Shown here piece by piece: positions 11,303 to 34,755 of a DNA stretch of 64,000 bases. Source of the DNA: Herbaspirillum frisingense (GTDB lineage Bacteria; Pseudomonadota; Gammaproteobacteria; Burkholderiales; Burkholderiaceae_D); contig WNDX01000002.1 in the NCBI GenBank assembly GCA_009914615.1, forward strand, positions 18,533-82,532, given 5' to 3'. The first letter of the stretch is position 1. Each line of letters begins with the position of its first letter. Made by a program: the position numbers and the translations under genes. Under the pieces are notes generated by a model, which was given only the letters and a program-made list of their open reading frames with translations, was not told the DNA's origin and searched no databases.

Positions 11303-11314
11303 GCGCGCCATAGC

Positions 11315-11683: not shown

Positions 11684-11890
11684 ATGTCCACCACATCCGG
11701 CATCACTCCAAGCAGCACCGTCGACCAGGCCCAGACCGGCAGCAGCGTCTGGCGCGACCGCGTCGCGCCCTCGCTGCTGGCTTTCGCGCTGGGCGCGGCG
11801 CTGATCTACGGCGCCGGCTTCGCTTCCAAGGTCGAGCTGCACAACGCCGCCCACGACGGCCGCCACTCGGCCGGCTTCCCCTGCCACTGA
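11684..11890 (+). CDS. cbtB: Cobalt transporter subunit CbtB
   Basis: One TM segment followed by LHNAAHDGRHSAGFPCH. Confidence 0.92.
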   Translation: MSTTSGITPSSTVDQAQTGSSVWRDRVAPSLLAFALGAALIYGAGFASKVELHNAAHDGRHSAGFPCH

Positions 11891-11900
11891 GGATCGCTGC

Positions 11901-12641
11901 ATGAACTGGACGATTTTCCGGCGCATGGCGTCGGCCGTGGTCATTGCCGGCGCGCTGTCGGGCATCTTGCTGTCGGGCGTGCAGCAGCTGCAGGTGGAAA
12001 AGATCATCCTCAAGGCCGAGGAATACGAGAAAGCCGGTGAAGCCAAGGCGCCCGAGCACGAGCATGAGCATGCGGCGCAACAAGCCGGTGCGCCGGCCGC
12101 TGCTGCTGCCCACGAGCATGAGCACGAACACGGCGGTGACGAATGGGAACCGGCCGACGGCGCCGAGCGCACCGGCTACACCGTGCTGGCCAACATCAGC
12201 ATGGCGATCGGCTTTGCGCTGATGCTAGCCGCCGCCATCGGCCTCAGCGGCCGCCAGGTCGGCTGGCGCAACGGCTTGCTGTGGGGCGCCGCCGGTTACG
12301 TGGTGTTCTTCGTCGCGCCTTCGCTGGGCTTGCCGCCGGAAGTGCCCGGCACGCTGGCCGCGCCGTTGCATGCGCGCCAGTTGTGGTGGGTGATGACCGC
12401 CGGCCTGACCGCGTGCAGCCTGGGCTTGTTCGTCTATGCCCGGGCCTGGGCCTGGAAACTGGTCGGCGTGCTGTTGCTGGTCGTGCCGCATCTCATCGGC
12501 GCGCCGCAGCCCGCAGTGCACGGCGGCGTGGCCCCGGAAGAACTGGCGCATGCCTTCATCCAGGCCACCGCCGTGGCCAATGCCGTGTTCTGGCTGGCGC
12601 TGGGTGGGTTGACCGGATTCTTCTATCGCAGGTTCGGCTGA
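11901..12641 (+). CDS. cbtA: Cobalt transporter subunit CbtA
   Basis: ILKAEEYE, His-rich loop, PSLGLPPEVPG, RQLWW and PHLIGAPQP motifs. Confidence 0.92.
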   Translation: MNWTIFRRMASAVVIAGALSGILLSGVQQLQVEKIILKAEEYEKAGEAKAPEHEHEHAAQQAGAPAAAAAHEHEHEHGGDEWEPADGAERTGYTVLANISMAIGFALMLAAAIGLSGRQVGWRNGLLWGAAGYVVFFVAPSLGLPPEVPGTLAAPLHARQLWWVMTAGLTACSLGLFVYARAWAWKLVGVLLLVVPHLIGAPQPAVHGGVAPEELAHAFIQATAVANAVFWLALGGLTGFFYRRFG

Positions 12642-12666
12642 ACCGGCCGGCGTGAGGCCGGCGGCA

Positions 12667-12705
12667 CTGCGGCGGCAGGCGGAGCGACGCTCCCTGCCGC
12701 CGCAG
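12667..12705 (+). other. Strong intergenic stem-loop with no U-tract
   Basis: CTGCGGCGGCAGG-C-GGAGC-GAC-GCTCC-CTGCCGCCGCAG. Confidence 0.55.
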
Positions 12706-12725
12706 CGCATTTGAAAGTGGATGCA

Positions 12726-13067
12726 ATGAGAACACATACCCGTCACGTGCTGATGTGCGTGGGGCCGCGCTGTACCGAAAACGGCGTGCTGGCCGAGTCC
12801 ATGTTCGCCGTGCTGGGCGAGCAGATCGACGCCCGCCCCGAGCTGCGCGTCAAGCGCACCCGCACCCATTGCATGGTGGCCTGCAAGGCGCAGGCGCCGG
12901 TGGTGGTGGTGTATCCCGAAGGCGTGTGGTACCGCTGCGAGGATGCGCAAGCCGTCCAGCGGGTGGTGGTCGAACATCTGGAGGGCGGTCGCGAAGTCAC
13001 CGACCTCATCTTCCATCGCCTGGGCACGGGCGATGTCAATTCCGAACCGGAGACTGGCGATGCCTGA
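12726..13067 (+). CDS. Thioredoxin-like [2Fe-2S] ferredoxin (CbiW-like)
   Basis: HVLMCVGPRC...CMVAC...VVVYPEGVWY motifs. Confidence 0.85.
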   Translation: MRTHTRHVLMCVGPRCTENGVLAESMFAVLGEQIDARPELRVKRTRTHCMVACKAQAPVVVVYPEGVWYRCEDAQAVQRVVVEHLEGGREVTDLIFHRLGTGDVNSEPETGDA

Positions 13068-16000
13068 GCGCGCCAACGGCGGCAACGCTTCCCCGCGCAT
13101 CGTCCTGCTGACGCATGCGCCCACCGATCTGTCCATGCTGGCCAGCGCGCGCGCCCAGTTGCCGGCGGATTTCTCGGCGGTGGCGGGTTACGATCTGCAG
13201 CGCCTGCAAACCGAGACCGACGAAGACGGCAATCCGCTTCGCACGCTGGCCACGCTGCTGCGCGAGGAGCTGGCGGGCGCCGGCGTGATCGTGCTGCGCG
13301 TGCTGGGGCGGCTGGGCGCCATTGCCGGTGTTGCCGAGCTGCTGCGCGTCGCGCGCAGCGAAGGCCGTCATCTGATCGTGCTGTCCGGTGCCGGCGAGCC
13401 CGATGCCGAACTGGCGGCGGCCTCGACCGCGCCGGCCGACGTGCAGCAGCAGGCGCTGGCCTATTTCAACGGCGGCGGCAGCGTCAACCTGGCGCAGATG
13501 CTGCGCTGCCTGTCCGATCGTCTGCTGCTGAGCGGGCATGGCTACGAGCCGGCCCAGGCCTTGCCCGAGCACGGCATCTACCATCCCGACCTGGAGCAGG
13601 ACGCCGGCCTCGACGACTGGCTGGCCCTGCGCGCGCACGCGCCGGCCGGCAAGCCCGCAGTGGGCATCATCTTCTACCGCGCGCACTGGCTGTCGGGCAA
13701 TACGCGCTTCATCGACGCGCTGGCGGCAGCGTTGGAGGCGCGCGGCATGGACGTACTGCCGGTCTTCACTTCGTCGCTGCGCGCCTCGGGCGCCGGGCGC
13801 GAGGAACTGCCGCCGGCCCTGCATTACTTCGGCGGCCGCGGCGAGGCCGCGCATGTCGATCTGCTGATCAACACCACCTCCTTCGCCATGGGCGAGATCA
13901 CCGCCGGCGGCGTCACGCCGGCCGGCTGGTCGGTGTCGGTGCTGGAACAACTGGACCTGCCGGTGCTGCAAGCCATGACCAGCGGCATGACGCAGGCGCA
14001 GTGGGAACATTCCACGCGCGGCATGAACCCGCTGGACGCGGCGATGAACGTGGTGCTGCCGGAATTCGACGGCCGCATCATCGGCGTGCCGCTGTCCTTC
14101 AAGCTGCCGGCCGAGTCCGGCGCGGTGGAGTACCAGGCGCTGCCCGACCGCGTGCGGCGCATCGCCGGCCTGGCGCAGCGTTTCGTCCGGCTGCGCAAGA
14201 AGCCCAATGCCGACAAGCGCATCGCCTTCATCTTCACCAACTCCAACAGCAAGGCCTCGCAGATCGGCAACGCCGTCGGCCTGGATGCGCCGGAGTCGTT
14301 GATGGGCGTGCTGCGCGCGCTGGCCGCCGATGGCTACCGCATCGGCGGGTTGCCCGCGACCGGCACCGCGCTGATCCACGAACTGGTGGATCGTTGCTCC
14401 TACGACGACATCCTTCTTTCGGAAGACCAGCTGCGCCGCGCCGCCGCGCGCATTCCGGCGGCGCGCTACGCGCAATGGTTCGCGGCGCTGCCAGCCGCCT
14501 TGCAAGGCAAGATGCAGCGTCAGTGGGGCGAGGCGCCGGGCGAGGCTTATGTCCATGAACAGCATCTGGTGATCGCCGGCCTCGACCTGGGCAATGCCTT
14601 TGTCGCGCTGCAGCCGCCGCGCGGCTACGGCATGGATCCGGACGCCATCTACCACCAGCCCGATTTGCCGCCCACCCATCATTACTACGCGCTGTACCGC
14701 TGGCTGGACGAAGAGTGGGGCGCCGACGCCATCGTCCACGTCGGCAAACATGGCACGCTGGAATGGCTGCCGGGCAAGGGCGTGGGCCTGTCGGAAGACT
14801 GCTTCCCCGATGCCTTGCTGGGCGACGTGCCGCTGTTCTATCCCTTCATCATCAACGATCCGGGCGAGGGCTCGCAGGCCAAGCGCCGCGCCCACGCGGT
14901 GGTGGTAGACCACCTGACGCCGCCGATGACCACCGCCGACAGCTACGGCGCGCTGGCCCAGCTCACGCAGCTGGTCGATGAGTATTACCAGGTCGAGGTG
15001 CTGGACCCGTCCAAGCTGCCGCTGCTGCAACAGCAGATCTGGGAACTGGTGCGCCAGACCAATCTGGATACCGACCTGCAATTCAAGCTGCTGCATCACG
15101 ACCATGATCACGACCATGATCACGACCATGATCACGACCACGATCACGACCACGATCACGGGCACGGACATGGGCATGGGCATGGGCACGGCCATGGTCA
15201 TCATCACCATGGCCACGATCACCACGATCACCATCACCCACATGGCCACCATCATCACGACCATGATCACGGCGACCACGATCACGACCATCCGCACCAA
15301 GACGGCGCGCTGCCGCATGCGCTGACCGAACTGGACGGCGCCGGCGTGGCGCACCTGATCGAGGATCTGGACGGCTATCTGTGCGAGCTGGGGGCGGCAC
15401 AGATCCGCGACGGCCTGCACATCCTCGGCCGCATGCCGGACGAGCAGCAACTGCCCGACATGCTGGTGGCGCTCACGCGCCTGCCCAACCAGGATCTGCC
15501 CGGCCTGCAGGAAGAAGTGGCGAAGCTGTTCGGCCTTTCGCTGGACATGCTGCTGGAGCACAAGGGCCGCCGCCTCAACATCGACGACGCGCTGGCCCGC
15601 ACGGCCGGCCGCGCCGTCGTGACGCGCGCTGACGCCATCGAAGCCATCGATGCGCTGTGCCTGACGCTGATGCAGTCGCTGCAGCAGCAGGGCTTTGCCG
15701 AATCCGCCATCGATGGCGTGCTGCGGACGGTCTTCGCCGAACTGGACACCACCCCGGCCGACGCCAGGCCGTGCCTGCAACCGGCCGCGGCCAAGGCTGC
15801 CGGCAGCGTGCTGGGCGGCATACGCGCCATGGCCCGTCCGGCCGCATCGAAGCTTGCGCCCGCCGCAGCCACCAAGCCGGCCAACGCCAAGATCATCGAT
15901 GATGCGCCGCTGCGCCGCGTGCTGTCCTTCGCCTGCCTGCAACTGGTGCCGCGCCTGCACCAGACCGGCGAAGAAATCGGCAACCTGCTCAAAGGCCTGC

Positions 16001-17316
16001 GCGGCGGCTATATCCCGGCCGGTCCCAGCGGTTCGCCCACGCGCGGCATGGCGCACATCCTGCCGACCGGCCGCAATTTCTACTCGGTCGATCCGCGCAG
16101 CGTACCCTCGCAATCGGCCTGGCGCGTGGGCCAGCAGTTGGCGCGCGAAGTGCTGGAGCGCCATCGGCGCGAAACCGGCGGCTATCCGGACAGTGTGGCC
16201 ATCAGCATCTGGGGCACCAGCGCCATGCGCACTCATGGCGACGACGTCGCCCAGATCCTGGCGCTGATGGGCGCGCGCCCGGTCTGGCGCGCCGGCAACC
16301 GCCAGGTGGCGGGGGTGGAACTGGTGCCGCTGGAAGAGTTGCAGCGCCCGCGCATCGACGTCACCACCCGGATCAGCGGTTTCTTCCGCGACGCCTTCCC
16401 GCAACTGATCGAGCTGATCGACGATGCGGTGCAGTTGGCGATCGCGGCCGACGAGCCGGAGGCCATGAATTTCGTGCGCAAGCATTACCTGCGCGATCTG
16501 CAGCAAGCCATGCAAGGCGGCCTGGGGCAGGCCGAAGCCGCGGCCCAGGCCTCCTACCGCGTGTTCGGCGCCAAGCCGGGCAGCTACGGCGCCGGCATCC
16601 TGCCGCTGATCCAGGAAAAGAACTGGCAGGACCAGGCCGACTTCGCCGAGGCCTACATCAACTGGGGCGGCTTCGCCTATGGCCGCAAGGTGCAGGGCGC
16701 CGACCAGCGCGATGCCTTCCGCCAGCGCCTGTCCGGCGTGCAGGTCGCCTTGCACAACCAGGACAACCGCGAGCATGACATCTTCGACAGCGACGATTAC
16801 ATGCAATACCACGGCGGCATGATCGCCACCATCCGCGCCTTGTCCGGGCATCAGCCGCGCCATTACTTCGGCGACAGCCACGATCCGTCGCGCGCCGCGG
16901 TGCGTGATCTCAAGGAGGAGACGCTGCGCGTGTTCCGCTCGCGCGTGGTCAACCCCAAGTGGCTGGCCAGCATCCGCCGCCACGGCTACAAGGGCGGGCT
17001 GGAACTGACGGCCACCGTCGATTACCTGTTCGGCTACGACGCCACGGCGCAGGTGCTGGACGACTGGATGTACCAGCAACTGGCCGAGACCTACGGTTTC
17101 GATCCGGCCATGCGCGAGTTCCTGGAACAGGCCAATCCCTGGGCCCAGAACGCCATTGCCGAACGCCTGCTGGAAGCGGCCAGCCGCGGCATGTGGCAAG
17201 CACCCGACGCGCAGACGCTGGAACGGCTTCGCCAGCTCTACCTGCACAGCGAAACCCTGCTGGAAGCGCGCGGCGAGACCGTGCGCGGCAGCGAACATAC
17301 CAAGGACATGCAATGA
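13060..17316 (+). CDS. cobN: Cobaltochelatase large subunit CobN, with a His-rich insert
   Basis: HVGKHGTLEWLPGKG, DPGEGSQAKRR, LPTGRNFYSVDPR, ISGFFRDAF and SRVVNPKW motifs; ATG at 13060 overlaps the ferredoxin end. Confidence 0.95.
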   Translation: MPERANGGNASPRIVLLTHAPTDLSMLASARAQLPADFSAVAGYDLQRLQTETDEDGNPLRTLATLLREELAGAGVIVLRVLGRLGAIAGVAELLRVARSEGRHLIVLSGAGEPDAELAAASTAPADVQQQALAYFNGGGSVNLAQMLRCLSDRLLLSGHGYEPAQALPEHGIYHPDLEQDAGLDDWLALRAHAPAGKPAVGIIFYRAHWLSGNTRFIDALAAALEARGMDVLPVFTSSLRASGAGREELPPALHYFGGRGEAAHVDLLINTTSFAMGEITAGGVTPAGWSVSVLEQLDLPVLQAMTSGMTQAQWEHSTRGMNPLDAAMNVVLPEFDGRIIGVPLSFKLPAESGAVEYQALPDRVRRIAGLAQRFVRLRKKPNADKRIAFIFTNSNSKASQIGNAVGLDAPESLMGVLRALAADGYRIGGLPATGTALIHELVDRCSYDDILLSEDQLRRAAARIPAARYAQWFAALPAALQGKMQRQWGEAPGEAYVHEQHLVIAGLDLGNAFVALQPPRGYGMDPDAIYHQPDLPPTHHYYALYRWLDEEWGADAIVHVGKHGTLEWLPGKGVGLSEDCFPDALLGDVPLFYPFIINDPGEGSQAKRRAHAVVVDHLTPPMTTADSYGALAQLTQLVDEYYQVEVLDPSKLPLLQQQIWELVRQTNLDTDLQFKLLHHDHDHDHDHDHDHDHDHDHDHGHGHGHGHGHGHGHHHHGHDHHDHHHPHGHHHHDHDHGDHDHDHPHQDGALPHALTELDGAGVAHLIEDLDGYLCELGAAQIRDGLHILGRMPDEQQLPDMLVALTRLPNQDLPGLQEEVAKLFGLSLDMLLEHKGRRLNIDDALARTAGRAVVTRADAIEAIDALCLTLMQSLQQQGFAESAIDGVLRTVFAELDTTPADARPCLQPAAAKAAGSVLGGIRAMARPAASKLAPAAATKPANAKIIDDAPLRRVLSFACLQLVPRLHQTGEEIGNLLKGLRGGYIPAGPSGSPTRGMAHILPTGRNFYSVDPRSVPSQSAWRVGQQLAREVLERHRRETGGYPDSVAISIWGTSAMRTHGDDVAQILALMGARPVWRAGNRQVAGVELVPLEELQRPRIDVTTRISGFFRDAFPQLIELIDDAVQLAIAADEPEAMNFVRKHYLRDLQQAMQGGLGQAEAAAQASYRVFGAKPGSYGAGILPLIQEKNWQDQADFAEAYINWGGFAYGRKVQGADQRDAFRQRLSGVQVALHNQDNREHDIFDSDDYMQYHGGMIATIRALSGHQPRHYFGDSHDPSRAAVRDLKEETLRVFRSRVVNPKWLASIRRHGYKGGLELTATVDYLFGYDATAQVLDDWMYQQLAETYGFDPAMREFLEQANPWAQNAIAERLLEAASRGMWQAPDAQTLERLRQLYLHSETLLEARGETVRGSEHTKDMQ
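15094..15297 (+). repeat. His-Asp/His-Gly codon repeat inside cobN
   Basis: (cacgac/catgat)n then (catggg)n hexamer repeats; 39 His in 68 codons. Confidence 0.95.
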
Positions 17317-19352
17317 GCGCCGCACGCCAGGCCGGTTATCCCTTCAGCGCCATCGTCGGCCAGCCGCTGCTGAAGCAGGCGCTGCTGCTGTGCGCGGTCG
17401 ATCCCGGCATCGGCGGCGTGCTGGTGCGCGGCGACAAGGGGACGGCTAAGAGCACCGCCGCGCGCGGCCTCACGCAGGTGCTGCCGCCCATCGTACGCAT
17501 CGCCGGCTGCGCCTTCAATTGCGCGCCCGGCCAGCCCGCCGCCGCTTGCGAAGCCTGCAATGCCGAGCAGGGCGGCAAGCAAGGCGAGGCCGACGTGCCG
17601 TTCGTCACGCTGCCGCTGGGCGCGACCGAAGACCGCGTGCTCGGCGCGCTGGATCTGCAGAAGGCGCTGCAGGGCGCGCAGCGCGCCTTCCAGCCCGGCC
17701 TGCTGGCGGCGGCCCATCGCGGCATCCTGTATATCGACGAAGTCAATCTGCTGGCCGACCACCTGGTCGATGTGCTACTGGACGTGGCCGCCATGGGCGT
17801 CAACGCGGTGCAGCGCGAAGGCTTGTCGGTCACGCATCCGGCGCGTTTCACGCTGGTCGGCACCATGAACCTGGAAGAAGGCGACCTGCGCCCGCAGCTG
17901 CTGGACCGTTTCGGCCTGATGGTGGAAGTGACCGCGCCCCGGGAAAAATCGGTGCGCGCCGAGGTGGTGCGTCGGCGCATCGCCTACGAATCCGATCCGG
18001 CCGGCTTTGCTGGACACTGGCAGGCCGGGCAGGATGCCTTGCGGGAACGCATCGCCGATGCGCAACGGCTGCTGCCGCAGGTGGCGCTGGACGACGCCAT
18101 GCTGGAGCTGATCAGCCACCTGTGCTGCGAATTCGAAGTGGCCAGCCTGCGCGCCGACATCGTGATGCACAAGACTGCGCGCGCCATCGCGGCGCTGGAA
18201 GCGCGGCTGCGCGTGACGCCCGACGACATCCGCGCCGCCGCGCAACTGGTGCTGCCGCATCGCAGCCGTCGCAAGCCGTTCGAGCAGACCGGCATGGACC
18301 AGGACAAGCTCGACGAACTGGTCGATCAGGCCCGCGCCCCGCAACCGCAGGAACCTTCCGCGCCGCAGCAGCCGCAGCAAGGCAGCGATGGCGAGGATGC
18401 GCCGCAAACGCCGCCGCCGGCGCCGGACGAAGACGGCGCCGATGATGGGGCCGATGACGGGCCCGATAACGGGCAGGGCGAGGGCGGCACGCAAACCTTC
18501 GCCGTCGCCGCGGCCGGCGCGGCGCGCAAGATCAGCGTGGATATCGCACCCGCCATGCCGGCACCAGCCGCGGCCGGCCGCCGCAGCACCGTGCATGACG
18601 CGACCCGCGGCAATGCCTTGCGTGCCGTGCCGGACGCCAATCCCGACCGCTTGGCCGTGGGCGCCACCTTGCGCAGCGCCGCCGTGCGCGGCGCGCTGGC
18701 CGACGATGGCATGGCCGATGGCCGCCTCCGCGTCACCGGCGCCGACCTGCATCGCCAGGTGCGCAGCGGCAAGGGCGCCAATCTGATCGTGTTCGTGGTG
18801 GACGCATCCGGTTCCATGGCCGCGCAGCGACGCATGGAAGCCGTCAAGGGCGCGGTGCTGGCGCTGCTAACCGACGCCTACCAGCGGCGCGACCAGCTGG
18901 CGGTGATCGCCTTCCGCGGCGAAACGGCCCAGATCCTGCTGGAACCGACCCGCAGCGTCGATCTGGCCGAGCAGGGCTTGCGCGAGCTGCCCACGGGCGG
19001 GCGCACGCCGCTGCCGCATGCGCTGCAACTGGCGGCGCAACTGCTGGACAAGGCATCGCAGCAGGAGGCGCCGCCGCTGCTGGTGATCCTGTCCGACGGC
19101 CGCGCCAACGTCGGCCTGCCTGGCAGCGGCAATGACGAAGGCGACGACCCCTGGGCCCAGACCCTGGCCGCGGCCGGCCACCTGGCCCGGCGCGGCACGC
19201 CGGCGCTGGTGCTGGACACCGAGACCGGCTATATCCGCCTGTGCCGCGCAGCCCAACTGGCCGAGGCGCTGGGCGCGCCATGCCTGACCCTGGAACAATT
19301 GACCGGCGACGCCCTGGCGTTGACCGTGCGCGCGCAATTGGGCGCGCGCTGA
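17313..19352 (+). CDS. ChlI/ChlD-type chelatase ATPase subunit (AAA+ domain, Pro/acidic linker, VWA domain)
   Basis: RGDKGTAKST Walker A, LYIDEVNLL and DASGSM MIDAS motifs; ATGA overlap with cobN. Confidence 0.92.
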   Translation: MSAARQAGYPFSAIVGQPLLKQALLLCAVDPGIGGVLVRGDKGTAKSTAARGLTQVLPPIVRIAGCAFNCAPGQPAAACEACNAEQGGKQGEADVPFVTLPLGATEDRVLGALDLQKALQGAQRAFQPGLLAAAHRGILYIDEVNLLADHLVDVLLDVAAMGVNAVQREGLSVTHPARFTLVGTMNLEEGDLRPQLLDRFGLMVEVTAPREKSVRAEVVRRRIAYESDPAGFAGHWQAGQDALRERIADAQRLLPQVALDDAMLELISHLCCEFEVASLRADIVMHKTARAIAALEARLRVTPDDIRAAAQLVLPHRSRRKPFEQTGMDQDKLDELVDQARAPQPQEPSAPQQPQQGSDGEDAPQTPPPAPDEDGADDGADDGPDNGQGEGGTQTFAVAAAGAARKISVDIAPAMPAPAAAGRRSTVHDATRGNALRAVPDANPDRLAVGATLRSAAVRGALADDGMADGRLRVTGADLHRQVRSGKGANLIVFVVDASGSMAAQRRMEAVKGAVLALLTDAYQRRDQLAVIAFRGETAQILLEPTRSVDLAEQGLRELPTGGRTPLPHALQLAAQLLDKASQQEAPPLLVILSDGRANVGLPGSGNDEGDDPWAQTLAAAGHLARRGTPALVLDTETGYIRLCRAAQLAEALGAPCLTLEQLTGDALALTVRAQLGAR

Positions 19353-19364
19353 AAGGAAAGACAC

Positions 19365-20084
19365 ATGATCATTTGCATCGGCGCCGGCCCCGGCGACCAT
19401 TCCTATCTCACCCTGCGCGGGGCCGACCTGATCCGCAACGCCGATGTGGTGGCCGGCTTCAACGCCGTGGTGGACGTGGTCAAGGAACTGATCCCGCCCA
19501 GCGCCGAGGTGGTGCTGATGGGCTACCGCGACCAGGTCGCCAAGCTCGATGAAGTGGCCGCCCTGCACCACGCCGGCAAGCGTTGCGTGGTGGTGTTCAT
19601 GGGCGACATCCACTTCAGCGGCTTCCAATATCTGGAACGCGTGGAACGCGCCTGCGGCCATCGGGTGGAAACGCTGCCGGGGATTTCCTCGGCGCAGATC
19701 CTGGCTTCGCGCGCGCGGGTCTGCTTCGACGAGACCACCTTCATCACCTTCCACCGCCGCGGCGACCTGGAACCATTCAAGCGCCATCTGGTGCACGTGC
19801 TCAACGACGGCCGCAACGCCATCGTCATTCCTTGTCCGTGGGATGCGGCCCGCTCCTTCATGCCGCGCCATATCGCGACCTATCTGCTGCAGCAGGGCGT
19901 CGATCCCGGGCATCCTACCGAAGTGTGGGAAAACCTCACGCGTGGCGACGCCGAATGGCATGGCAAGCTGGCCGATTGCGCCGACCAGGAATTCAGCGAC
20001 ATGAGCATCATGCTGATCCGCACCAAGACGCCCATGGAAAGCCAGATCGAGCCGCCGCCGGCGGCCGTCAGGGAAGGCGCATGA
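19365..20084 (+). CDS. cbiE: CbiE-like (cobalt-)precorrin C5-methyltransferase, stand-alone
   Basis: [17 protein letters not shown] and PGISSAQ tetrapyrrole-methylase motifs; no CbiT half. Confidence 0.75.
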
Positions 20085-24472: not shown

Positions 24473-25302
24473 CGCCGCCGGCCGGCGAAGCCGAACTCGG
24501 CATCTGGCCGGTGCGTGCCGAGGCCGAGTTGCTGGCCCTGCATCTGCAGGCCCGGCTGGGCGGTACGCTGTACCGGCCGTGGCTGACCGCGGCGGCTGCT
24601 GATACAGACGGCGCGGCGCCGACGCAGCGCCAGCAGTTTGCGCTGGTCTATCGCCGTCACCGGCAATGGATCATGATCGGCGCGACCGGCATTGCGGTGC
24701 GCTTTCTCGACGGCCTGCCGCAGGACAAGCACAGCGATCCGGCCGTGGTGGTGCTGGATGAGGCCGCGCGCTTCGCGGTCTCCCTGCTGGCCGGCCATGA
24801 AGGCGGCGCCAACCGCCTGGCCTATCGCGCGGCGCAGGCCACCGGTGCGCAGCCGGTGGTGAGCACGGCGACCGAGGCGATCAAGCCGCTGGTGCTGGGC
24901 ATAGGCTGCCGCAGGCATGCCACGGCCGAACAGATTTCGCTGGCGGTGGCGCAGGCGCTGGCGCTGCTGGAAGGCGCCGCGCTGGCCCAGGTGCGCGAGG
25001 TGGCGACGATCGACATCAAGGCCGACGAGCCCGGCCTGCTGGCGTTCTGCGCGACCCACGACCTGCCGCTGCGGGTCATCTCGACGCAGCAGATCGCCCA
25101 GCGCGCCTGGGTCGGTAAGCCCTCGGACTGGGTCCGGCAAAACGTCGGCGTCGAAGGCGTGTGCGAACCGGCCGCTTTGATCGCCAGCCCGCGCGGCCGG
25201 CTGGCGCTGGGCAAGACCGCGTTGGATGGCGTGACGGTGGCGGTGGTGGACGATGGCGCGGGATGGTTGCCGCAAGACGGTCCGTTGTCACCGTCATCTT
25301 GA
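24469..25302 (+). CDS. cbiG: Cobalt-precorrin-5A hydrolase CbiG (short form lacking the middle domain)
   Basis: ATGIAVR, DKHSDPAVVVLD, LAGHEGGAN, LGIGCRR and GVCEPAA motifs. Confidence 0.88.
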   Translation: MTPPAGEAELGIWPVRAEAELLALHLQARLGGTLYRPWLTAAAADTDGAAPTQRQQFALVYRRHRQWIMIGATGIAVRFLDGLPQDKHSDPAVVVLDEAARFAVSLLAGHEGGANRLAYRAAQATGAQPVVSTATEAIKPLVLGIGCRRHATAEQISLAVAQALALLEGAALAQVREVATIDIKADEPGLLAFCATHDLPLRVISTQQIAQRAWVGKPSDWVRQNVGVEGVCEPAALIASPRGRLALGKTALDGVTVAVVDDGAGWLPQDGPLSPSS

Positions 25303-25412
25303 CGAAGGCAAGCGCCTGCCCCGGGGCGCGGGATTGAACGGATTGAAATGAAGAGCAAGTACGTAACGAGCCGAAAAGACGGCGAAAAAACGGCAACAAA
25401 AAGGATGCAGCA

Positions 25413-26960: not shown

Positions 26961-26962
26961 GC

Positions 26963-28123
<1,161 letters not shown>

Positions 28124-28139
28124 GACTGGAAAAAGAACC

Positions 28140-28742
28140 ATGAAAACCGATCCTGAATCGCACAAGCGCATGACCCAGCGCCATAAAGAGGGCTTCGAAA
28201 AGAAGAAGGCCGCGGCACAGAAAGAAAAGGGCCTGCTGATCGTCAACACCGGCACCGGCAAGGGCAAGTCCAGCGCCGCCTTCGGCATGGGCATGCGCAT
28301 CCTCGGCCAAGGCATGAAGCTGGGCGTGGTGCAGTTCATCAAGGGCGCGCTGTACAGCGCCGAACGCGATTTCCTCGGCGGCCACGCCCACTGCGATTTC
28401 CACGTGGTGGGCGAGGGCTACACCTGGGATACCCAGGACCGCGACGCCGACATGCGCACCGCCGCTCGCGGCTGGGCCGAGGCGGTGCGCATGATCAACG
28501 ACCCGAGCTACGACATGGTGATCCTGGACGAGCTCAACATCGTGCTGAAGTACCAGTACCTGGATCTGGAGGAAGTGCTGCGCGTCTTCTCCGGCCGTCG
28601 CGAGATGCTGCACATCGTGGTCACCGGGCGCCATGCGCCGGAGGCGCTGATCGCGCAGGCCGATCTGGTCAGCGAGGTGCGTCCGCTCAAGCATCCCTAT
28701 AAAGAACAAGGCGTGAAAGCGCAGAAAGGCGTGGAATTCTGA
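28140..28742 (+). CDS. cobO: Cob(I)yrinic acid a,c-diamide adenosyltransferase
   Basis: NTGTGKGKSSAAFG, VQFIKG, LDELN, VTGRHA and KHPY...AQKGVEF motifs. Confidence 0.96.
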   Translation: MKTDPESHKRMTQRHKEGFEKKKAAAQKEKGLLIVNTGTGKGKSSAAFGMGMRILGQGMKLGVVQFIKGALYSAERDFLGGHAHCDFHVVGEGYTWDTQDRDADMRTAARGWAEAVRMINDPSYDMVILDELNIVLKYQYLDLEEVLRVFSGRREMLHIVVTGRHAPEALIAQADLVSEVRPLKHPYKEQGVKAQKGVEF

Positions 28743-30076
28743 TGGAAGCGAGCGAGTATCGTTGTCCGGCGCTCTTCATTTCGGCGCCCGCCTCGGGCCA
28801 CGGCAAGACCACCATCACGGCGGCGCTGGCGCGCTTGTACCGCCGCGACGGCAAGACGGTGCGGGTCTTCAAGACCGGCCCCGATTTCCTGGACCCGCTG
28901 GTGCTGGAGCAGGCTTCCGGCCACCCGGTGGTCAACCTCGATCTGTGGCTGGGCGGCGAAGACCATTGCCGCCGCCAGGTGGCGCTGGCCGCGCGCGAAG
29001 CCGACGTGGTGCTGGTCGAAGGCGTAATGGGTCTGTATGACGGCGAACCGAGCAGCGCCGACCTGGCGCAGTTGCTGGGCATTCCGGTGGTGGCGGTGAT
29101 CAATGCGCGCGGCATGGGCCAGACGGTCGGCGCGCTGGCCCAGGGCCTGATCGCCTATCGTCCCGAACTGCGCTTCGCCGGCGTGCTGGCCAATGGCGTG
29201 GCCAGCCCGCGCCATGCGCAGATGCTGCGCCAGGGGCTGCAGAACGCCAGACCCACCGTGCCGCTCTTGACCGGCTTGCAGCGCGACATGCAGTTCGCGC
29301 TGCCCGAGCGTCACCTGGGCCTGGTGGCCGCGCCCGAGATCGCCGACCTGGACGCCCGCCTGGACGCGGTCGCCGACCGCATGGCCAGCACCTCGCTGGC
29401 CAAGTTGCCGGAGCCGGTGGACTTCGGCGCGCCGCCGCCGGAGCGCGAGTTTCCCCGCCTGCTGGAAGGCAAGACCATCGCCGTGGCGCGCGACCTGGCG
29501 TTCTCCTTCATCTACACCGCCAACCTCGACCTGCTGCAACGCATGGGCGCGCAGCTAGCCTTCTTCTCGCCGCTGGCCGACGACGCGCTGCCCCCCTGCG
29601 ATGCGGTGTGGCTGCCGGGCGGCTATCCCGAGCTGTATTTGGAGACGCTGCAAGCCTCGGCCCGCACCCAGGCCGGCCTGTGCGCGCACGCCGACGCCGG
29701 CAAGCCGCTGTATGCGGAATGCGGCGGCATGCTCTACCTGCTGGAAACCATCGTCGATCAGGAAGGCCAGAGCGGCCGCATGTGCGGAGTGCTGCCGGGC
29801 CAGGCCACGGTGCAGCAGCGCCTGCAAGGGCTGGGCTATCAGACGCTGTCGCTGAACCTGCCGGGCGCCTTCGGCGAACACTTGCGCTGCCACACCTTCC
29901 ATTACTCGCGCGCGGTGGTCGGCGCGCAATTCATGGCGCGCGGCGAGCGGCTCTTCGATTCTTCCGAAGGCGAGGTGGTCTATCGTCGCAACAAGGTGAC
30001 GGCCAGCTACCTGCACGCCTACTTCCGTTCCGCGCCGCGTACCGTGGCCGCCCTGTTCGGAGGCGCCAACGCATGA
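28742..30076 (+). CDS. cobB: Cobyrinate a,c-diamide synthase
   Basis: ASGHGKTT, FKTGPDFLDP, VEGVMGLYDG, PGGYPEL and YAECGG motifs. Confidence 0.95.
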   Translation: MEASEYRCPALFISAPASGHGKTTITAALARLYRRDGKTVRVFKTGPDFLDPLVLEQASGHPVVNLDLWLGGEDHCRRQVALAAREADVVLVEGVMGLYDGEPSSADLAQLLGIPVVAVINARGMGQTVGALAQGLIAYRPELRFAGVLANGVASPRHAQMLRQGLQNARPTVPLLTGLQRDMQFALPERHLGLVAAPEIADLDARLDAVADRMASTSLAKLPEPVDFGAPPPEREFPRLLEGKTIAVARDLAFSFIYTANLDLLQRMGAQLAFFSPLADDALPPCDAVWLPGGYPELYLETLQASARTQAGLCAHADAGKPLYAECGGMLYLLETIVDQEGQSGRMCGVLPGQATVQQRLQGLGYQTLSLNLPGAFGEHLRCHTFHYSRAVVGAQFMARGERLFDSSEGEVVYRRNKVTASYLHAYFRSAPRTVAALFGGANA

Positions 30077-30744
30077 GTCAGGCGCAGCCGCATCGCTATG
30101 CGCAGGCCGAGATCGACGCGCTCTACCGCGCCATCCGCGAGCGGCGCGACATGCGCCATTTCCTGCCGGACGCGGTCGATCCGGCGCTGCTGGAACGCTT
30201 GCTGCAGGCCGCGCATCACGCGCCCAGCGTGGGTTTCATGCAGCCCTGGCGCTTCATCCGCATCCGCGATGCGCAACTGCGCGCCGCCATCCATGCGCTG
30301 GTCGAGCAGGAACGCGTGACCACGGCACAGGCGCTGGGCGAGCGCGAGGATGAATTCATGAAACTCAAGGTCGAGGGCATCCGCGACTGCGGCGAGCTGC
30401 TGGTGGCGGCGCTGATGGACGGGCGCGAACCGCATGTGTTTGGCCGCCGCACCCTGCCGCAGATGGATCTGGCCTCATTGGCCTGCGCGCTGCAGAACAT
30501 GTGGCTGGCGGCGCGTGCCGAAGGCCTGGGGATGGGCTGGGTCTCGCTGTTCGAACCGGCGGCGCTGGCGCGCCTGCTGGGCATGCCCACCGGCGCCGAG
30601 CCGGTGGCGGTGGTGTGCCTGGGGCATGTCCCGGCCTTCTATGACAAGCCCATGCTGGAGCAGCAGAACTGGGCCGTGCGTCAGCCGCTGGAGCAACTGA
30701 TATTCGAAGACCGCTGGCCGGGCGCGGAAAGAGAGGACGCATGA
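30073..30744 (+). CDS. bluB: 5,6-dimethylbenzimidazole synthase
   Basis: YRAIRERRDMRHF, APSVGFMQPWRF and GLGMGWVS motifs. Confidence 0.93.
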   Translation: MSQAQPHRYAQAEIDALYRAIRERRDMRHFLPDAVDPALLERLLQAAHHAPSVGFMQPWRFIRIRDAQLRAAIHALVEQERVTTAQALGEREDEFMKLKVEGIRDCGELLVAALMDGREPHVFGRRTLPQMDLASLACALQNMWLAARAEGLGMGWVSLFEPAALARLLGMPTGAEPVAVVCLGHVPAFYDKPMLEQQNWAVRQPLEQLIFEDRWPGAEREDA

Positions 30745-31346
30745 ACACCCACCAGGCGCGACGCAGCCTGATCTTCGGCGGCGCCCGCTCGGGCAAGAGC
30801 GCGCATGCCGAGAAACTGGCGCTGGCGGCCTTGCAGGCGGGCGCCGATGAAATCGTTTATATCGCCACCGCCGGCCGCGCCGCCAGCGCGGGCGACGCCG
30901 AGATGAGCGAGCGCATCGCCCATCACCGCCAGCGGCGCGACGCCCTGGGCGGCCAGTGGCGCACCGTGGAAGAACCGCTGGCGCTGGGCCAGGCGCTGCG
31001 CGCCAACAGCCGCGCCGGCAACGTGGTGCTGGTCGATTGCCTGACGGTGTGGCTATCCAATCTGCTGTTCGCGGAAGGCCATGACTTTCCCGAATTGGGG
31101 CCGATCACGCCGCCGGCCACTTTCACGCTGCAGCGCGTGGATTTCCTGCGCGCCTTGCAGGACGCCAGGGGCCAGGTGATCCTGGTGTCGAACGAAGTGG
31201 GCATGGGCATCGTGCCGCAGGGCGCGGTGTCGCGCTGGTTCGTGGATGAGGCCGGGCGATTGAATCAATCGGTGGCGGCCATCTGCGAGCGCGTGCAATG
31301 GGTGGCGGCCGGTTTGCCATTGACGTTCAAGGATGCGGCGTGCTGA
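30741..31346 (+). CDS. cobU: Bifunctional adenosylcobinamide kinase / guanylyltransferase
   Basis: [24 protein letters not shown] and [11 protein letters not shown] motifs. Confidence 0.95.
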
Positions 31347-32287
31347 GCGGCTTGTCCTGGCCCGCGCTGGCGTTGCTGATGACGGCCGGCATCGTGCTGG
31401 ATCTGCTGCTGGGAGAGGCGCGGCGCTGGCATCCGCTGGTAGGCTTCGGCCATCTCGCCAAGCGCATCGAAGGCGCGCTCAATCATGCTCCGGCGCTGCG
31501 CCTGCGCGGCGTGCTGGCGTGGATGCTGGCGGTGCTGCCCGGCGTGGCGCTGACGGCCTGGATCATCCATCTGGCGCCTTGGTGGCTGGCCGGCCTGCTG
31601 CATGCGGTGTTGCTGTATGTCTGCATCGGCCTGCGCAGCCTGCGCGACCACACCTTGCCGATCGCGCGCGCGCTGGCGCAGGGTGACCTGCCGGCCGCGC
31701 GCGTGTTGACTTCGTACATCGTCAGCCGCGATACGCGGCAGGCCGGCGAGGCCGATCTGGCCAAGGCCGGCGTCGAGTCGCTGCTGGAGAACGGCAACGA
31801 CGCGGTGTTCGGCACGCTGTTCTGGTTCCTGGTGGCCGGCGGCCCGGGCGCGGTGCTGTTTCGCCTGGCCAATACCCTGGATGCGATGTGGGGCTATCGC
31901 AATGACCGCTTCCTGCATTTCGGCTGGGCGGCGGCGCGCATCGACGATGCGCTGAACTGGATCCCGGCGCGCCTGACCGCGTGGTCCTATGCCTGGCTGG
32001 GCGATCGCGAACGTGCGCTGGCCTGCTGGAAAGAACAGGCGCCGGCCTGGAGCAGTCCCAACGCCGGCCCGGTGATGGCGGCCGGCGCCGGTGCGCTGGG
32101 CGTGCTGCTGGGCGGTGCGGCGGTGTACGACGGCGAAGTCGAGCAGCGCCCGCCGCTGGGCCGCGGCCAACCCGCGCAGGGCGCCGACATCGTGCGCGCC
32201 TGGCGGCTGGTGGCGATGAGCACGGCGCTGTGGCTGGCCGCCGTCTGCGCGCTGGCGCTGGTGTCGTTGGGAGTCTTCCATGCTTGA
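31340..32287 (+). CDS. cbiB: Adenosylcobinamide-phosphate synthase
   Basis: [28 protein letters not shown] and SPNAG motifs; GTG start inferred. Confidence 0.93.
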
Positions 32288-33296
32288 ACACGGTGGCAAT
32301 CTCAACGACGCCGCGCGGCACTACGGTCGCCCGCGCAGCGAGTGGCTAGACCTGTCCACCGGCATCAATCCGCTTCCTTATCCGGCGCCCGCGCCGGCGC
32401 CGGACGCCTGGCACCGCCTGCCGGAACCCTCGGACGACCTGGCGCGCGCCGCCTGCGCCTACTACGGCGCAGCGCGCATGCTGCCGGTGGCGGGCACGCA
32501 AGCGGCGATCCAGGCCTTGCCGCAGTTACGCCTGCGCCGCGACGGCCGTGCTGCGCGTGTGGTGGTGGCCGCGCCCATCTATGCCGAGCACGCGCATTGC
32601 TGGACGCGCGCCGGCCATGCGGTGCGCGAGGTGCCCTACGAGGCGCTGGACGCGGCCGTGCAGGGCGACTGCGAGGTGCTGGTGCTGTGCAATCCCAACA
32701 ATCCCACCGGCGCCATGGTCGCGCCGGAGCAGTTGCTGCGCTGGGCGCGGCAATTGGGCGCGCGCGGCGGCTGGCTGGTGGTCGATGAAGCCTTCGGCGA
32801 CACCGTGCGCGAATACAGCGTGGCCGCGCATGCCGGCGACGCCGGGGCGGATGGTTTGATCGTGCTGCGTTCCGTGGGCAAGTTCTTCGGCCTGGCCGGT
32901 TTGCGCCTGGGCTTCGTCGCCGCCGGGCCGACGCTGCTCGATGAGCTTGCCGACTGGCTGGGGCCGTGGACCGTCAGCGGCCCGGCGCAGCAGGTCGGTA
33001 TTGCCGCCTTGCGCGATGAACCATGGCAGCGCGCCACGCTGCAGCGCCTGCTGGCCGACGGTGAACGCCTGCGCGCCTTGCTGGCGCGGCAGGGCATGAC
33101 GACATCCGGCAGCGCGCTGTTCCAGTGGTGGCCGGAGCCGCGCGCGCAGGCCTTCCATGCAGCGATGGCGCGCCAGGGCGTGTGGGTACGCCTGTTCACG
33201 TGCGGCGCCGGCGGCATCCGCATCGGCCTGCCGCCTGACGAGGACGGCTGGCGCCGGCTGGCGCTAGCCTTGCAGGCATGGAGCGCGCATGGCTGA
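32280..33296 (+). CDS. cobD: Threonine-phosphate decarboxylase (PLP-dependent)
   Basis: [27 protein letters not shown] and [15 protein letters not shown] motifs. Confidence 0.92.
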
Positions 33297-34755
33297 TTTT
33301 CCCTTCCATACCCTGATGATCCAGGGCACCACCTCGGACGCCGGCAAGAGCACGCTGGGCGCGGCGCTGTGCCGCCTGCTCCGGCGCGACGGCATCGCGG
33401 TGGCGCCGTTCAAGCCGCAGAACATGGCGTTGAACAGCGCGGTCACCGCCGATGGCGGCGAGATCGGCCGGGCCCAGGCCTTGCAGGCCCAGGCCGCCGG
33501 CATCGCGCCGCATACCGACATGAACCCGGTGCTGCTCAAGCCCTCCAGCGATACCGGCGCCCAGGTCATCGTGCACGGCAAGGTGCGCGCCGACATGAAC
33601 GCGCGCGACTATCACCGCTACAAGACCGAGGCCATGCAAGCCGTGCTGGCTTCCTATGGCCGCCTGCGCGCGCAATATCGGAGCATCATCGTCGAGGGCG
33701 CCGGCAGCCCGGCCGAGATCAACCTGCGGGCGCGCGACATCGCCAACATGGGCTTTGCCGAGGCGGTCGATTGCCCGGTCATCATCGTGGCCGACATCGA
33801 CCGCGGCGGCGTGTTCGCGCATTTGACCGGCACGCTGGATTGTCTCTCCGAGAGCGAGCGCGCGCGCGTGATCGGTTTCGTCATCAACCGTTTCCGCGGC
33901 GACATCAGCCTGTTGCAGCCCGGCCTGGACTGGCTGGAACAACGCACCGGCAAGCCGGTGCTGGCGGTGCTGCCTTACCTGCACGGCCTGCACCTGGACG
34001 CGGAAGACGCCATCGCCGCGACGCAGAGCGCGCGCGGCGAGTTCCGCGTGGTGGTGCCGGTGCTGCCGCGCATCAGCAACCATACCGACTTCGATGCGCT
34101 GCGCGCGCATCCCGATGTCGATCTGCGCTTCGTCGGGCCGGGCCAGCCGATTCCACCGGCCGACCTGATCATCCTGCCCGGCAGCAAGAACACCCGCGGC
34201 GACATGGCCTGGCTGGCGCAGCACGGCTGGCCCGATGCCATCCGCAAGCATCTGCGCTACGGCGGCAAGCTGATCGGCATCTGCGGCGGCTTCCAGATGC
34301 TGGGCGAGGGCGTGGACGACCCGCACGGCGTGGAAGGCGCGCCTGGCAGCAGCGAGGGATTGGGCCTGCTGGCCATGCGTACCGAGCTGACGCGTGACAA
34401 GCGCCTGCTGCAAGTGGCCGGCCATTGCCATTTCGGCGTCGGCGCCGCCGCGGTCAGCGGTTATGAGATTCACATGGGCGTCTCCGCCGGCGCGGCGCTG
34501 GAGCGTCCCGCCTTCATCATCGAGGGGCGCGGCGAAGGCGCGCAATCCGCGGACGGGCAGATACTGGGCAGTTACCTGCACGGCATGTTCGACACCCCGC
34601 AGGCGTTTGCCGCGCTGCTCGCGTGGGCGGGGCTGGACGGGGTGGAGGCGGTGGATCTGGACGCCTTGCGCGAGGCCAGCCTGGAGCGGCTGGCGGATGC
34701 GACGCAACCCTTGTATGAGGCCTTGAAGAAGGTGGAGTCGCGCTTCGGCGGATAA
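33289..34755 (+). CDS. cobQ: Cobyric acid synthase
   Basis: [37 protein letters not shown] and [10 protein letters not shown] motifs. Confidence 0.97.

Follow-up and report, generated by a model that had tools for sequence, protein, structure and literature searches.

The model of the cobalt-early route to cobalamin is the cbi operon of Bacillus (Priestia) megaterium, with its CbiX-long and CbiW (PMC7689651, PMC7242693; gene list in part as commonly given). The Herbaspirillum frisingense operon described here resembles it in having a class II CbiX-long with an N-terminal His pair and a small ferredoxin-like gene, and in running the pathway in an aerobe. Unlike Herbaspirillum, B. megaterium has CbiET and lacks CobN, ChlD, and a COG0523 protein. 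Moreover, the B. megaterium CbiX carries an Fe-S center and a His-rich tail, whereas in Herbaspirillum, CbiX forms a fusion with CbiC, and it is CobN that contains the His-rich stretch. With the late-insertion CobNST/CobW systems of Pseudomonas denitrificans, Rhodobacter capsulatus, and Brucella, Herbaspirillum shares a clear CobN orthologue (above the TIGR02257 cut-off; 817 bits to structure 9uk9) and a cluster that also encodes a COG0523 GTPase and an AAA+/VWA motor. It differs from them in lacking CobG, CobZ, and CobF to make the CobN substrate, in replacing CobS and CobT by one ChlI-ChlD polypeptide, and in having a GTPase without the CxCC site and a CobN with a His/Asp-rich loop. In Pseudomonas, Burkholderia, and Delftia, as in Herbaspirillum, a chlD-type gene adjoining cobN provides the motor in lieu of cobS and cobT; there, the gene is frameshifted, and a poly-A slippery run yields both the small and medium subunits (PMC3711429, PMC9227772), whereas the Herbaspirillum chlD is a continuous frame with neither a slippery heptamer nor a poly-A run, and the genome has no separate chlI.

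Early- and late-type cobalt-inserting enzymes are indeed mixed in one operon, as previously noted in the literature: the co-occurrence of cbiX and cobN is documented (PMC6461909, PMC8305020), and neither of the two types of chelatase is restricted to one route (Shelton 2019). Haloferax volcanii (HVO_B0051, HVO_B0050) combines cobalt-early genes with CobN and a fused ChlID, without CobG. The published account treats the extra CobN of haloarchaea as an open issue and suggests "maybe salvage" (Pfeiffer 2021, PMC8305020), and the rescue or salvage of metal-free corrins, proposed in a preliminary description of our locus, is the same speculation. Haloferax plasmids are among the ChlD matches; unlike Herbaspirillum, Haloferax is archaeal, contains CbiT (it served as the control in our CbiT search), and has other pathway gaps. 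The megaplasmid cob operon of Ralstonia solanacearum (GMI1000 cobN is RSp0626; e.g., CP085044.1, 261677 to 280885) follows the order seen in Herbaspirillum: ferredoxin, cobN, a fused "putative cobaltochelatase," cbiE, cbiX-cbiC (annotated as precorrin-8X methylmutase), cbiD, cobI, cobM, cbiG, cobJ-K, a "GTP-binding protein," cobO, cobB, and bluB. Its ChlD is 60% identical to that of Herbaspirillum, and 129 records of Ralstonia megaplasmids carry the design. Where Herbaspirillum has cbtB and cbtA, Ralstonia encodes a HoxN-type Ni/Co permease, and the Herbaspirillum unit continues into cobU, cbiB, cobD, and cobQ. The operon type is functional in R. solanacearum: a GMI1000 cobN::Tn5 metE double mutant grew in ordinary cultures only with added cobalamin (PMC3353975). 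This deficiency speaks against the case, considered in the preliminary description, that loss of cobN has no effect, although the transposon probably has polar effects on cbi genes downstream of it.

In the 64,000-nucleotide stretch of H. frisingense DNA analyzed here (the window), profile searches of the ORFs delineate a plus-strand operon at 11.3 to 34.8 kb, running from cbtB to cobQ under one cobalamin riboswitch. All of the genes named beforehand (those for CbiX, CbiD, CbiG, the ferredoxin, CobN, the ChlI/D fusion, CobW, and BluB) are present in it on that strand. The cobalt-transporter genes come first: cbtB, for the small subunit (11684 to 11890; PF09489, 67 bits), probably starts at the ATG at 11684 in an ORF open from 11588, and cbtA (11901 to 12641; TIGR02458, 241.5 bits, cut-off 182.9) encodes a HEHEHEH patch. 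A 113-residue, thioredoxin-like [2Fe-2S] ferredoxin follows (12726 to 13067), which is CbiW-like, as proposed earlier, with four cysteines (Cys11, Cys16, Cys49, and Cys53) in columns aligned with structure 1f37 (E value, 2.4e-11). Its stop overlaps the start of cobN, the large subunit of the class I, ATP-dependent cobaltochelatase (13060 to 17316; TIGR02257, 1227.8 bits, cut-off 822). The next ORF encodes a ChlD-type motor (17313 to 19352; TIGR02442, 800.3 bits, cut-off 779.45), with a ChlI-like AAA+ domain, an acidic linker, and a VWA domain in one polypeptide (AAA lid, Mg_chelatase, and VWA matches).

The ring-synthesis genes are cbiE, for the cobalt-precorrin-7 C5-methyltransferase (19365 to 20084; NF004457, 359.5 bits, cut-off 302); a cbiX(long)-cbiC fusion joining a class II sirohydrochlorin chelatase domain to precorrin-8 methylmutase (20081 to 21673; PF01903 twice, PF02570); and cbiD, cbiL (cobI), and cbiF (cobM), for the C1-methyltransferase (21673 to 22905; TIGR00312, 347 bits, cut-off 200), the C20-methyltransferase (22902 to 23660; TIGR01467, 207 bits, cut-off 163), and the C11-methyltransferase (23657 to 24472; TIGR01465, 334 bits, cut-off 260). 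They continue with cbiG, which has N and C domains (24469 to 25302; NF005440, 413.9 bits, cut-off 395; PF11760 and PF01890), and a cbiH-cbiJ fusion for C17-methylation with ring contraction and precorrin-6 reduction (25413 to 26960; TIGR01466, 289 bits; TIGR00715, 193 bits). A CobW-like COG0523 GTPase gene (26963 to 28123) precedes cobO, for the corrinoid adenosyltransferase (28140 to 28742); cobB/cbiA, for the a,c-diamide synthase (28742 to 30076; NF002204, 436.7 bits); bluB, for the O2-dependent 5,6-dimethylbenzimidazole synthase (30073 to 30744; TIGR02476, 258 bits, cut-off 150); and the late-step genes cobU, cbiB, cobD, and cobQ (30741 to 34755), all on the plus strand.

That these genes form a single transcription unit, as first described, is supported at both ends and in between. 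A sigma-70-like promoter candidate (11274 to 11302, plus strand; TTGCCG-17-TATACT, 9 of 12 positions, a consensus match only) lies directly 5' of the riboswitch aptamer (11306 to 11533, plus strand; RF00174, 104.9 bits, gathering score 31.5), which is kept at the same position in all six homologous loci tested. Most of the genes overlap or abut, terminator-like sites on the plus strand inside the operon are no more numerous than in shuffled sequence, and a G+C-rich hairpin of 8 pairs directly 3' of the cobQ stop (34761 to 34781; T tail on the minus strand) likely marks the end of the unit. The locus is a complete riboswitch-controlled B12 operon, of a design, here called Type B, common to many aerobic beta- and gammaproteobacteria, including R. 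solanacearum. About 65 species-level loci from genomes and about 70 contigs from metagenomes match it gene for gene, and the Herbaspirillum operon is an ordinary member of this known type.

Whole-genome HMM searches of the Herbaspirillum assembly (4.69 Mb, 99.3% complete) yielded no CobG, CobF, CobZ, or CobS above the cut-offs; the best CobG score, 157 bits against 235, belongs to a 573-residue sulfite-reductase-like ORF. CobG was likewise not found in five named relatives carrying the same operon, including the complete chromosomes of H. huttiense and Massilia atriviolacea, and in a 251-genome sample of the order it occurs in four genomes, none with this operon type. The absence of cobG, cobZ, and cobF noted for the window therefore extends to the genome, and two full routes are not present. 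A second complete pathway, with cobG or cobZ plus cobF at another locus or in the 0.7% missing from the assembly, could appeal to the draft state of the assembly (254 contigs), but given these searches, we consider it very improbable. Since only one ring-contraction system is present, the suggestion that the organism may switch routes is not supported: there is no second route to switch to. The early route is itself incomplete, and the pathway is not the textbook one, since CbiT is absent from the operon and the Herbaspirillum genome and from all ten Type B genomes searched.

Early insertion is argued for in this operon only by CbiX and the absence of CobG and CobZ. CbiX, CbiD, and CbiG had been taken to define the early route; for CbiD and CbiG this is too strong, since in two CobG-bearing clusters of the same order (G205 and G033), CbiG-like and CbiD-like genes adjoin cobW-cobN-chlD, and no cbiX was detected in those clusters. 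The CbiX domain matches the SirB structures 6jv6 and 5zt7 (E value, 1e-32), and its GHGS and RHAKND (xHAKND) motifs contain the two N-terminal His residues known from CbiX-long and SirB, which are invariant in 72 loci. The operon CbiX looks active and dedicated to B12. A second, small CbiX is encoded on another contig, where its gene neighbors are cobA and a sulfite-reductase-like gene; it probably functions in siroheme synthesis, so that B12 is left to the operon copy.

We favor, with a probability of about one-half, a reading of this Type B de novo cobalamin operon in which cobalt-early ring synthesis is accompanied by the CobN module as back-up metalation. One B12 riboswitch would control cobalt uptake by CbtAB, corrin-ring synthesis, and the late steps. 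The ring would be made without O2 and with cobalt inserted early: sirohydrochlorin would receive its cobalt from the CbiX-long domain, whose catalytic His pair is intact, and CbiL, CbiH (probably with the [2Fe-2S] ferredoxin), CbiF, CbiG, CbiD, CbiJ, CbiE, and CbiC would lead on to cobyrinic acid. The second, strictly co-inherited module would be an ATP-driven class I chelatase composed of CobN with its putative metal-binding His/Asp-rich loop, the ChlI-ChlD motor, and the Cys-less COG0523 GTPase. Our best guess is that tetrapyrrole or corrinoid that has escaped CbiX without receiving cobalt is metalated by this module, which may act as a back-up in aerobic hosts when cobalt is scarce. We infer the order of the steps and the substrate of CobN. 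Several points count against this reading. None of the enzymes encoded in the genome is known to yield a cobalt-free corrin on which a rescue chelatase would act; CbiT is missing from the early route; and the joint retention of both chelatases in essentially every operon copy is not expected of redundant enzymes. CobNST, which needs more available cobalt than CbiK, depends on CobW (PMC10206600), yet the CobW-like protein of the operon lacks the CxCC site; and the R. solanacearum Tn5 phenotype, likely polar, does not isolate the role of CobN.

It is also conceivable, though unlikely, that cobalt is inserted late without CobG, CobN-ChlD being the principal chelatase on hydrogenobyrinic acid a,c-diamide and the CbiX domain secondary; CbiH, CbiG, and CbiD, together with the ferredoxin, would then contract the ring in an unrecognized manner independent of CobG and CobZ. 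The structures nearest to CobN are late-type (M. tuberculosis CobN, 7c6o, 1032 bits; 9uk9, 817 bits), and the operon enzymes are about equally distant from early-type and CobG-type clusters. CbiG-like and CbiD-like genes work in the CobG-bearing, apparently CbiX-less clusters and so are by themselves no sign of cobalt-containing substrates. All named hosts belong to groups of aerobes or microaerophiles, and the operon contains the O2-dependent BluB; both points favor late insertion. The translational coupling of the ferredoxin gene to cobN points the same way, but a homologue adjoins cbiH in cobN-less early-type clusters, so the ferredoxin is not CobN specific. Further against late insertion are the invariant CbiX His pair in a domain under the B12 riboswitch, the lack of any oxygenase or CobZ-like gene in the Herbaspirillum genome, and the missing Co site, used in late insertion, of the CobW-like protein.

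CobN, encoded by a single-copy gene, and ChlD look active, as judged from scores above the equivalog cut-offs, the intact Walker A (GDKGTAKS) and Walker B (LYIDEV) motifs of ChlD, and identities of 58 to 88% across Oxalobacteraceae, Methylobacter, Gallionella, Nitrosomonadaceae, and Ralstonia; none of the copies in these groups is broken. The class I and class II chelatases are strictly co-conserved. When loci were anchored on cbiE rather than on a chelatase, chlD was found upstream in 59 of 60 and cobN in 45 of 46, and cbiX was downstream in 67 of 67. This conservation, spanning two proteobacterial classes, contradicts the view of cobN-chlD as decaying leftovers of a former late pathway, the least probable of the readings considered, for which nothing speaks beyond the missing known substrate. 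The retention of both chelatases in essentially every copy of the operon argues against redundancy and for distinct roles. It weighs likewise against parallel early insertion, in which CobN-ChlD would metalate the CbiX substrate (sirohydrochlorin or factor II/III) in an ATP-driven, condition-specific manner, e.g., when cobalt is very low or oxic stress prevails; the His/Asp loop of CobN would capture cobalt in place of a CxCC CobW. Such a substrate would exist in the cell, the module directly follows the cobalt transporter genes, and the CobN loop and a His-rich patch of the GTPase are kept across the lineage. However, by its score, CobN is a CobN equivalog rather than the member of a new subfamily. 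CbiX-type clusters operate with no CobN at all in seven genomes of the same order, and we know of no class I chelatase that uses sirohydrochlorin; we regard this possibility as doubtful.

More improbable, in our view, is that CobN-ChlD does not insert cobalt at all and instead removes wrong metals (proofreading or dechelation) or keeps cobyrinic acid a,c-diamide bound until it is reduced and adenosylated. To our knowledge, no evidence for either activity exists in any CobN. The CobN/ChlH family does include the solved heme dechelatase HmuS (9d26), but at 348 bits it is far more distant from Herbaspirillum CobN than the cobaltochelatase CobNs are. Class II chelatases are metal-promiscuous (PMC7689651), and the Cys-less GTPase suggests altered metal handling, both in line with a non-inserting role.

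The operon lineage has three consistent oddities: the absence of CbiT, a CobW-like protein without the CxCC metal site, and the His/Asp-rich loop in CobN. In Herbaspirillum, this loop, rich in His, Asp, and Gly, comprises 68 residues (679 to 746; 15094 to 15297, plus strand). Related loci contain 63 complete CobN ORFs, each with a His-rich loop behind the same DLQxxLL motif, whereas the CobNs of CobG-type clusters align to the model without a break. As to the protein initially named CobW, a COG0523 GTPase is present, but it scores below the CobW equivalog cut-off (TIGR02475, 152.9 bits against 332.1) and contains no cysteine. Where CobW has GCxCC, it reads GLIAY, and GL[IV]AY is kept in the GTPase of about 58 related loci.

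The B12 genes of the window form a single operon that encodes two cobalt chelatases, the class II enzyme CbiX and the class I, ATP-driven CobN-ChlD module. It lies on contig C112 of a 4.69-Mb assembly (254 contigs, 99.3% complete, ~67% G+C), and its ChlD shares 76-83% identity with the ChlD proteins of Herbaspirillum robiniae, H. huttiense, and H. aquaticum. A promoter-like site (11274-11302) precedes a cobalamin riboswitch (RF00174, 11306-11533, 105 bits, above the gathering score), which lies upstream of the B12 genes on the same strand and is kept in all six homologous loci tested. Profile and domain matches then place, all on the + strand and for the most part overlapping or abutting, cbtB (11684-11890), cbtA (11901-12641), a thioredoxin-like [2Fe-2S] ferredoxin gene (12726-13067), cobN (13060-17316), a ChlI-ChlD fusion (17313-19352), cbiE (19365-20084), a cbiX(long)-cbiC fusion (20081-21673), cbiD (21673-22905), cbiL (22902-23660), cbiF (23657-24472), cbiG (24469-25302), a cbiH-cbiJ fusion (25413-26960), a COG0523 GTPase gene (26963-28123), cobO (28140-28742), cobB (28742-30076), bluB (30073-30744), and cobU, cbiB, cobD, and cobQ (30741-34755). 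The gene content listed in the preliminary description is thus correct. Terminator-like sites on the + strand within the operon show no excess over shuffled sequence, and a strong hairpin stands 3' of cobQ.

CbiT aside, every member of the cobalt-early gene set is matched by at least one model above its curated cutoff. From the late-pathway set, CobN is present, and neither CobG/CobZ nor CobF nor CobS was found. In whole-genome profile searches the best CobG match was a 573-amino-acid sulfite-reductase-like frame (157 bits versus a cutoff of 235), the top CobF match was the operon's own CbiL (23.9 versus 195.8 bits), CobZ reached 37 versus 373 bits, and the search for the motor subunits, run with the CobS model, returned zero matches; a ChlD-type fusion stands in place of CobS and CobT. 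Since the assembly is a draft, the CobG search was repeated in five named genomes with the same operon, two of them with complete chromosomes (H. huttiense HhutSZ1 and Massilia atriviolacea SOD), and CobG was found in none. The absence of cobG, cobZ, and cobF, first noted for the window, therefore extends to the whole genome, and two complete pathways can be rejected because CobG, CobZ, CobF, and CobS all stay below cutoff in the source genome and CobG is absent from the five relatives. The earlier proposal that the organism may switch routes fails as well, because only one ring-contraction system exists in the genome. CobN could instead be the main, late chelatase, following an unrecognized ring contraction; we consider this reading unlikely.

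Most likely, the corrin ring is made by cobalt-early chemistry, in which CbiX would act as the first chelatase. The CbiX domain aligns with SirB structures (E value, 1e-32) and retains the N-terminal His pair (GHGS and RHAKND), both motifs being invariant in 72 loci. Use of this CbiX as a siroheme ferrochelatase is unlikely, as the operon copy is under B12 control and a separate small CbiX is encoded on contig C205 of the same genome. There, a 172-amino-acid frame for a single-domain CbiX has as its neighbors genes for a CobA-type uroporphyrinogen methyltransferase and a sulfite-reductase-like protein (coordinates 7912-8226, 9535-10248, and 14248-15525); the genome yielded no CysG that carries an N-terminal dehydrogenase/chelatase domain. 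The C205 cluster is probably a siroheme branch with its own chelatase, which leaves the operon CbiX dedicated to B12. CobN might also provide parallel early insertion, an option that we hold to be just as improbable as a main, late role for CobN.

To place the operon among its relatives, we surveyed 251 evenly sampled genomes of the order and read the neighborhoods, which fall into three cluster types. Type A (genomes G152, G123, G048, G140, G214, G010, and G153) consists of cbiF, cbiX, cbiC, cbiD, cbiET, cbiL, cbiG, and cbiH, without cobN, chlD, or the COG0523 gene. Type B is the operon design of the window (the source genome G000 and G110, G203, and G221, with G209 interrupted by a contig end). 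Type C (G205 and G033) combines cobW, cobN, and chlD with cobG and with CbiG-like and CbiD-like genes. In the two Type C clusters (contigs G205:C77 and G033:C6, loci L127-L130), the CbiG-like and CbiD-like products, at 40-42% and 38-42% identity, respectively, are encoded beside cobW, cobN, and chlD, and cbiX was not detected. Two more CobG genomes, G215 and G219, lack CbiG_N. Even among CobG-type clusters, in which CbiD-like genes occur, CobF is not always present.

Because these CobG-bearing clusters hold both kinds of gene, CbiG and CbiD are not confined to the early route and are unreliable markers for early cobalt insertion. The view that CbiX, CbiD, and CbiG define that route is accordingly weakened for CbiD and CbiG, the CobG-bearing clusters having yielded no cbiX. 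Identity of the Type B enzymes to their Type A and Type C counterparts is 25-49% in both cases, so similarity gives no indication of whether their substrates contain cobalt. In five of the seven Type A clusters a ferredoxin gene follows cbiH; since it accompanies cbiH where there is no cobN, the ferredoxin belongs with the ring chemistry and is not CobN specific. To our knowledge, only prokaryotes produce B12, and genome surveys class the producers as "aerobic" or "anaerobic" by marker genes. The Type B operon is a case in which marker genes again fail to sort B12 routes cleanly.

The two chelatases are retained together with great strictness. A ChlD-anchored search gave 80 species-level genome loci, of which ~65 were long enough to display most of the gene order, namely, cbtA, fdx, cobN, chlD, cbiE, cbiX, cbiC, cbiD, cbiL, cbiF, cbiG, cbiH, cbiJ, and the GTPase gene, with identities of 55-95%. 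The hosts include Herbaspirillum, Massilia, Duganella, Rugamonas, Glaciimonas, Janthinobacterium, Methylobacter, Gallionella, Nitrosomonadaceae, Methylophilaceae, Andreprevotia, and Ralstonia. For metagenome contigs, the anchor was cbiE, among the operon's most conserved genes (80-96% identity), which was chosen to avoid selecting for a chelatase; chlD lay directly upstream of it in 59 of the 60 loci with enough sequence, cobN lay upstream in 45 of 46, and cbiX lay downstream in all 67. Two apparent exceptions were rejected. Locus L190 (metagenome contig Ga0182019_10000412) holds just cbiE, cbiX-cbiC, cbiD, cbiL, and cbiF, flanked by lptD-surA and a TrlF-family ATPase gene; it is not a cobN loss, since the operon is split and cbiG, cbiH, and cbiJ are also missing from this piece, the other operon genes presumably lying elsewhere. 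Genome G209 is not a CobN-less member of the lineage either: the contig breaks off at cbiG, and cbiX-cbiC is likewise missing from the assembly, which denotes an assembly gap. The notion of CobN-ChlD as a relic was also rejected. Soil-dwelling, plant-associated, and methane-oxidizing aerobes in large number keep an early-type and a late-type cobalt chelatase side by side and have no CbiT.

The window operon is a further example of an operon type that is already known, widely distributed, and annotated, and it is not a new discovery. The same operon lies, with routine annotation, on the R. solanacearum megaplasmid, 129 Ralstonia records match, and the co-occurrence of cbiX and cobN is already in print. 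Shelton et al. (2019) remarked that neither chelatase type is restricted to one route. Haloarchaea run the cobalt-early route and yet encode CobN and a fused ChlID, which was named an open issue by Pfeiffer and Dyall-Smith (PMC8305020), with salvage as a tentative guess. In R. solanacearum, Plener et al. (PMC3353975) used a cobN::Tn5 mutant (RSp0626) as a cobalamin-deficient strain, and their cobN metE double mutant requires added cobalamin for growth, which shows that the Type B operon makes B12 in ordinary laboratory culture. As cobN stands near the operon head, the insertion is probably polar, and CobN's own role is then not isolated by this mutant. Herbaspirillum and Ralstonia are genetically tractable, which makes the operon a test case of moderate interest for B12 specialists.

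CobN and ChlI-ChlD, neighbors under the B12 riboswitch, are both above their curated cutoffs (TIGR02257 and TIGR02442, respectively). CobN is the sole copy in the genome and scores 1,228 bits versus 822; its closest structures are M. tuberculosis CobN (7c6o, 1,032 bits) and the CobN of 9uk9 (817 bits), the heme dechelatase HmuS being far lower (348 bits). A role for CobN other than insertion, e.g., proofreading, appears highly improbable to us. The ChlI-ChlD motor has Walker A (GDKGTAKS) and Walker B (LYIDEV) motifs in one continuous open reading frame (ORF). Programmed frameshifting in chlD was rejected, since the gene has neither an X_XXY_YYZ heptamer nor an A-run of at least 6 (its sole A5 is at codon 211) and ChlD aligned by tblastn in a single continuous segment in 80/80 genome loci. 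No separate chlI was found in the genome, and given this and the lack of a slippery site, the motor seems, from its sequence, to work as one polypeptide. In this it resembles the haloarchaeal ChlID, likewise one polypeptide, and differs from the chlD genes of Pseudomonas, Burkholderia, and Delftia, which are poly-A frameshifted (PMC3711429).

CobN, ChlI-ChlD, and the GTPase would together form a conserved second chelatase, driven by ATP. We suggest that this module metalates cobalt-free material escaping CbiX, a reading akin to the rescue proposed in the preliminary description and to which we give a probability of about one in two. Two lineage-specific features bear on how it would obtain its metal. 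The COG0523 GTPase carries a G3E GTPase domain (PF02492, 133 bits) and a CobW_C domain (PF07683, 46 bits) and remains below the CobW equivalog cutoff (TIGR02475, 152.9 versus 332.1 bits). It contains no Cys in 386 amino acids and has GLIAY where CobW has GCxCC, GL[IV]AY being kept in ~58 related loci; PGAP annotates the Ralstonia orthologue merely as "GTP-binding protein." CobNST demands far more available Co than CbiK (Young et al., PMC10206600), so that CobW is needed, and this dependence makes the loss of CxCC in the window GTPase notable. In turn, CobN has a 68-residue His/Asp/Gly-rich loop (15094-15297). All 63 complete Type B CobN ORFs have a His-rich loop behind the same DLQxxLL motif, its length and sequence varying among them; the CobN of CobG-type clusters aligns unbroken, the loop being absent. 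The Cys-less GTPase and the His/Asp loop suggest that CobN, through a His/Asp site, may have taken over metal capture from a Cys site of the chaperone.

CbiT is the step that fits least. It was above cutoff in none of 10 Type B genomes, the best match in a whole-genome search of the source genome scoring 45.7 versus 78.3 bits, and it is present in all 11 other corrin-synthesis genomes (7/7 of Type A and 4/4 with CobG, the latter including both of Type C) at 85-137 bits. The operon has no unassigned stretch of ~190 amino acids able to hold CbiT, and no substitute was identified. A hidden CbiT was rejected, the best-scoring candidate, on contig C37, being a protein-isoaspartate-methyltransferase-like gene that adjoins an RND pump and has no riboswitch. 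Together with the strict co-retention of both chelatases, the CbiT gap is the main weakness of the rescue reading and hints at a pathway other than the textbook one. Type B could be a third way of making corrins that has yet to be described. Here the CbiT step would be done otherwise, and CobN with its His/Asp loop, ChlI-ChlD, and the Cys-less GTPase would perform an essential cobalt insertion of which CbiX is incapable, possibly into a cobalt-free corrin whose synthesis needs neither CobG nor CobZ. We regard this variant as decidedly unlikely. Old reports describe corrinoids without cobalt in purple bacteria grown anaerobically; if true, such a route could also account for these compounds.

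Two smaller features of the operon deserve mention. A match to the Twister-sister ribozyme within the GTPase coding region (27491-27576, 39.5 bits versus a gathering score of 34) is a false positive, with several nonstandard pairs and no counterpart in six homologous loci, and reflects chance similarity within coding sequence rich in G+C. The loop region of CbtA (11901-12641) bears a His-Glu patch, HEHEHEH / HEHEHEH, one more His-rich element of the operon.
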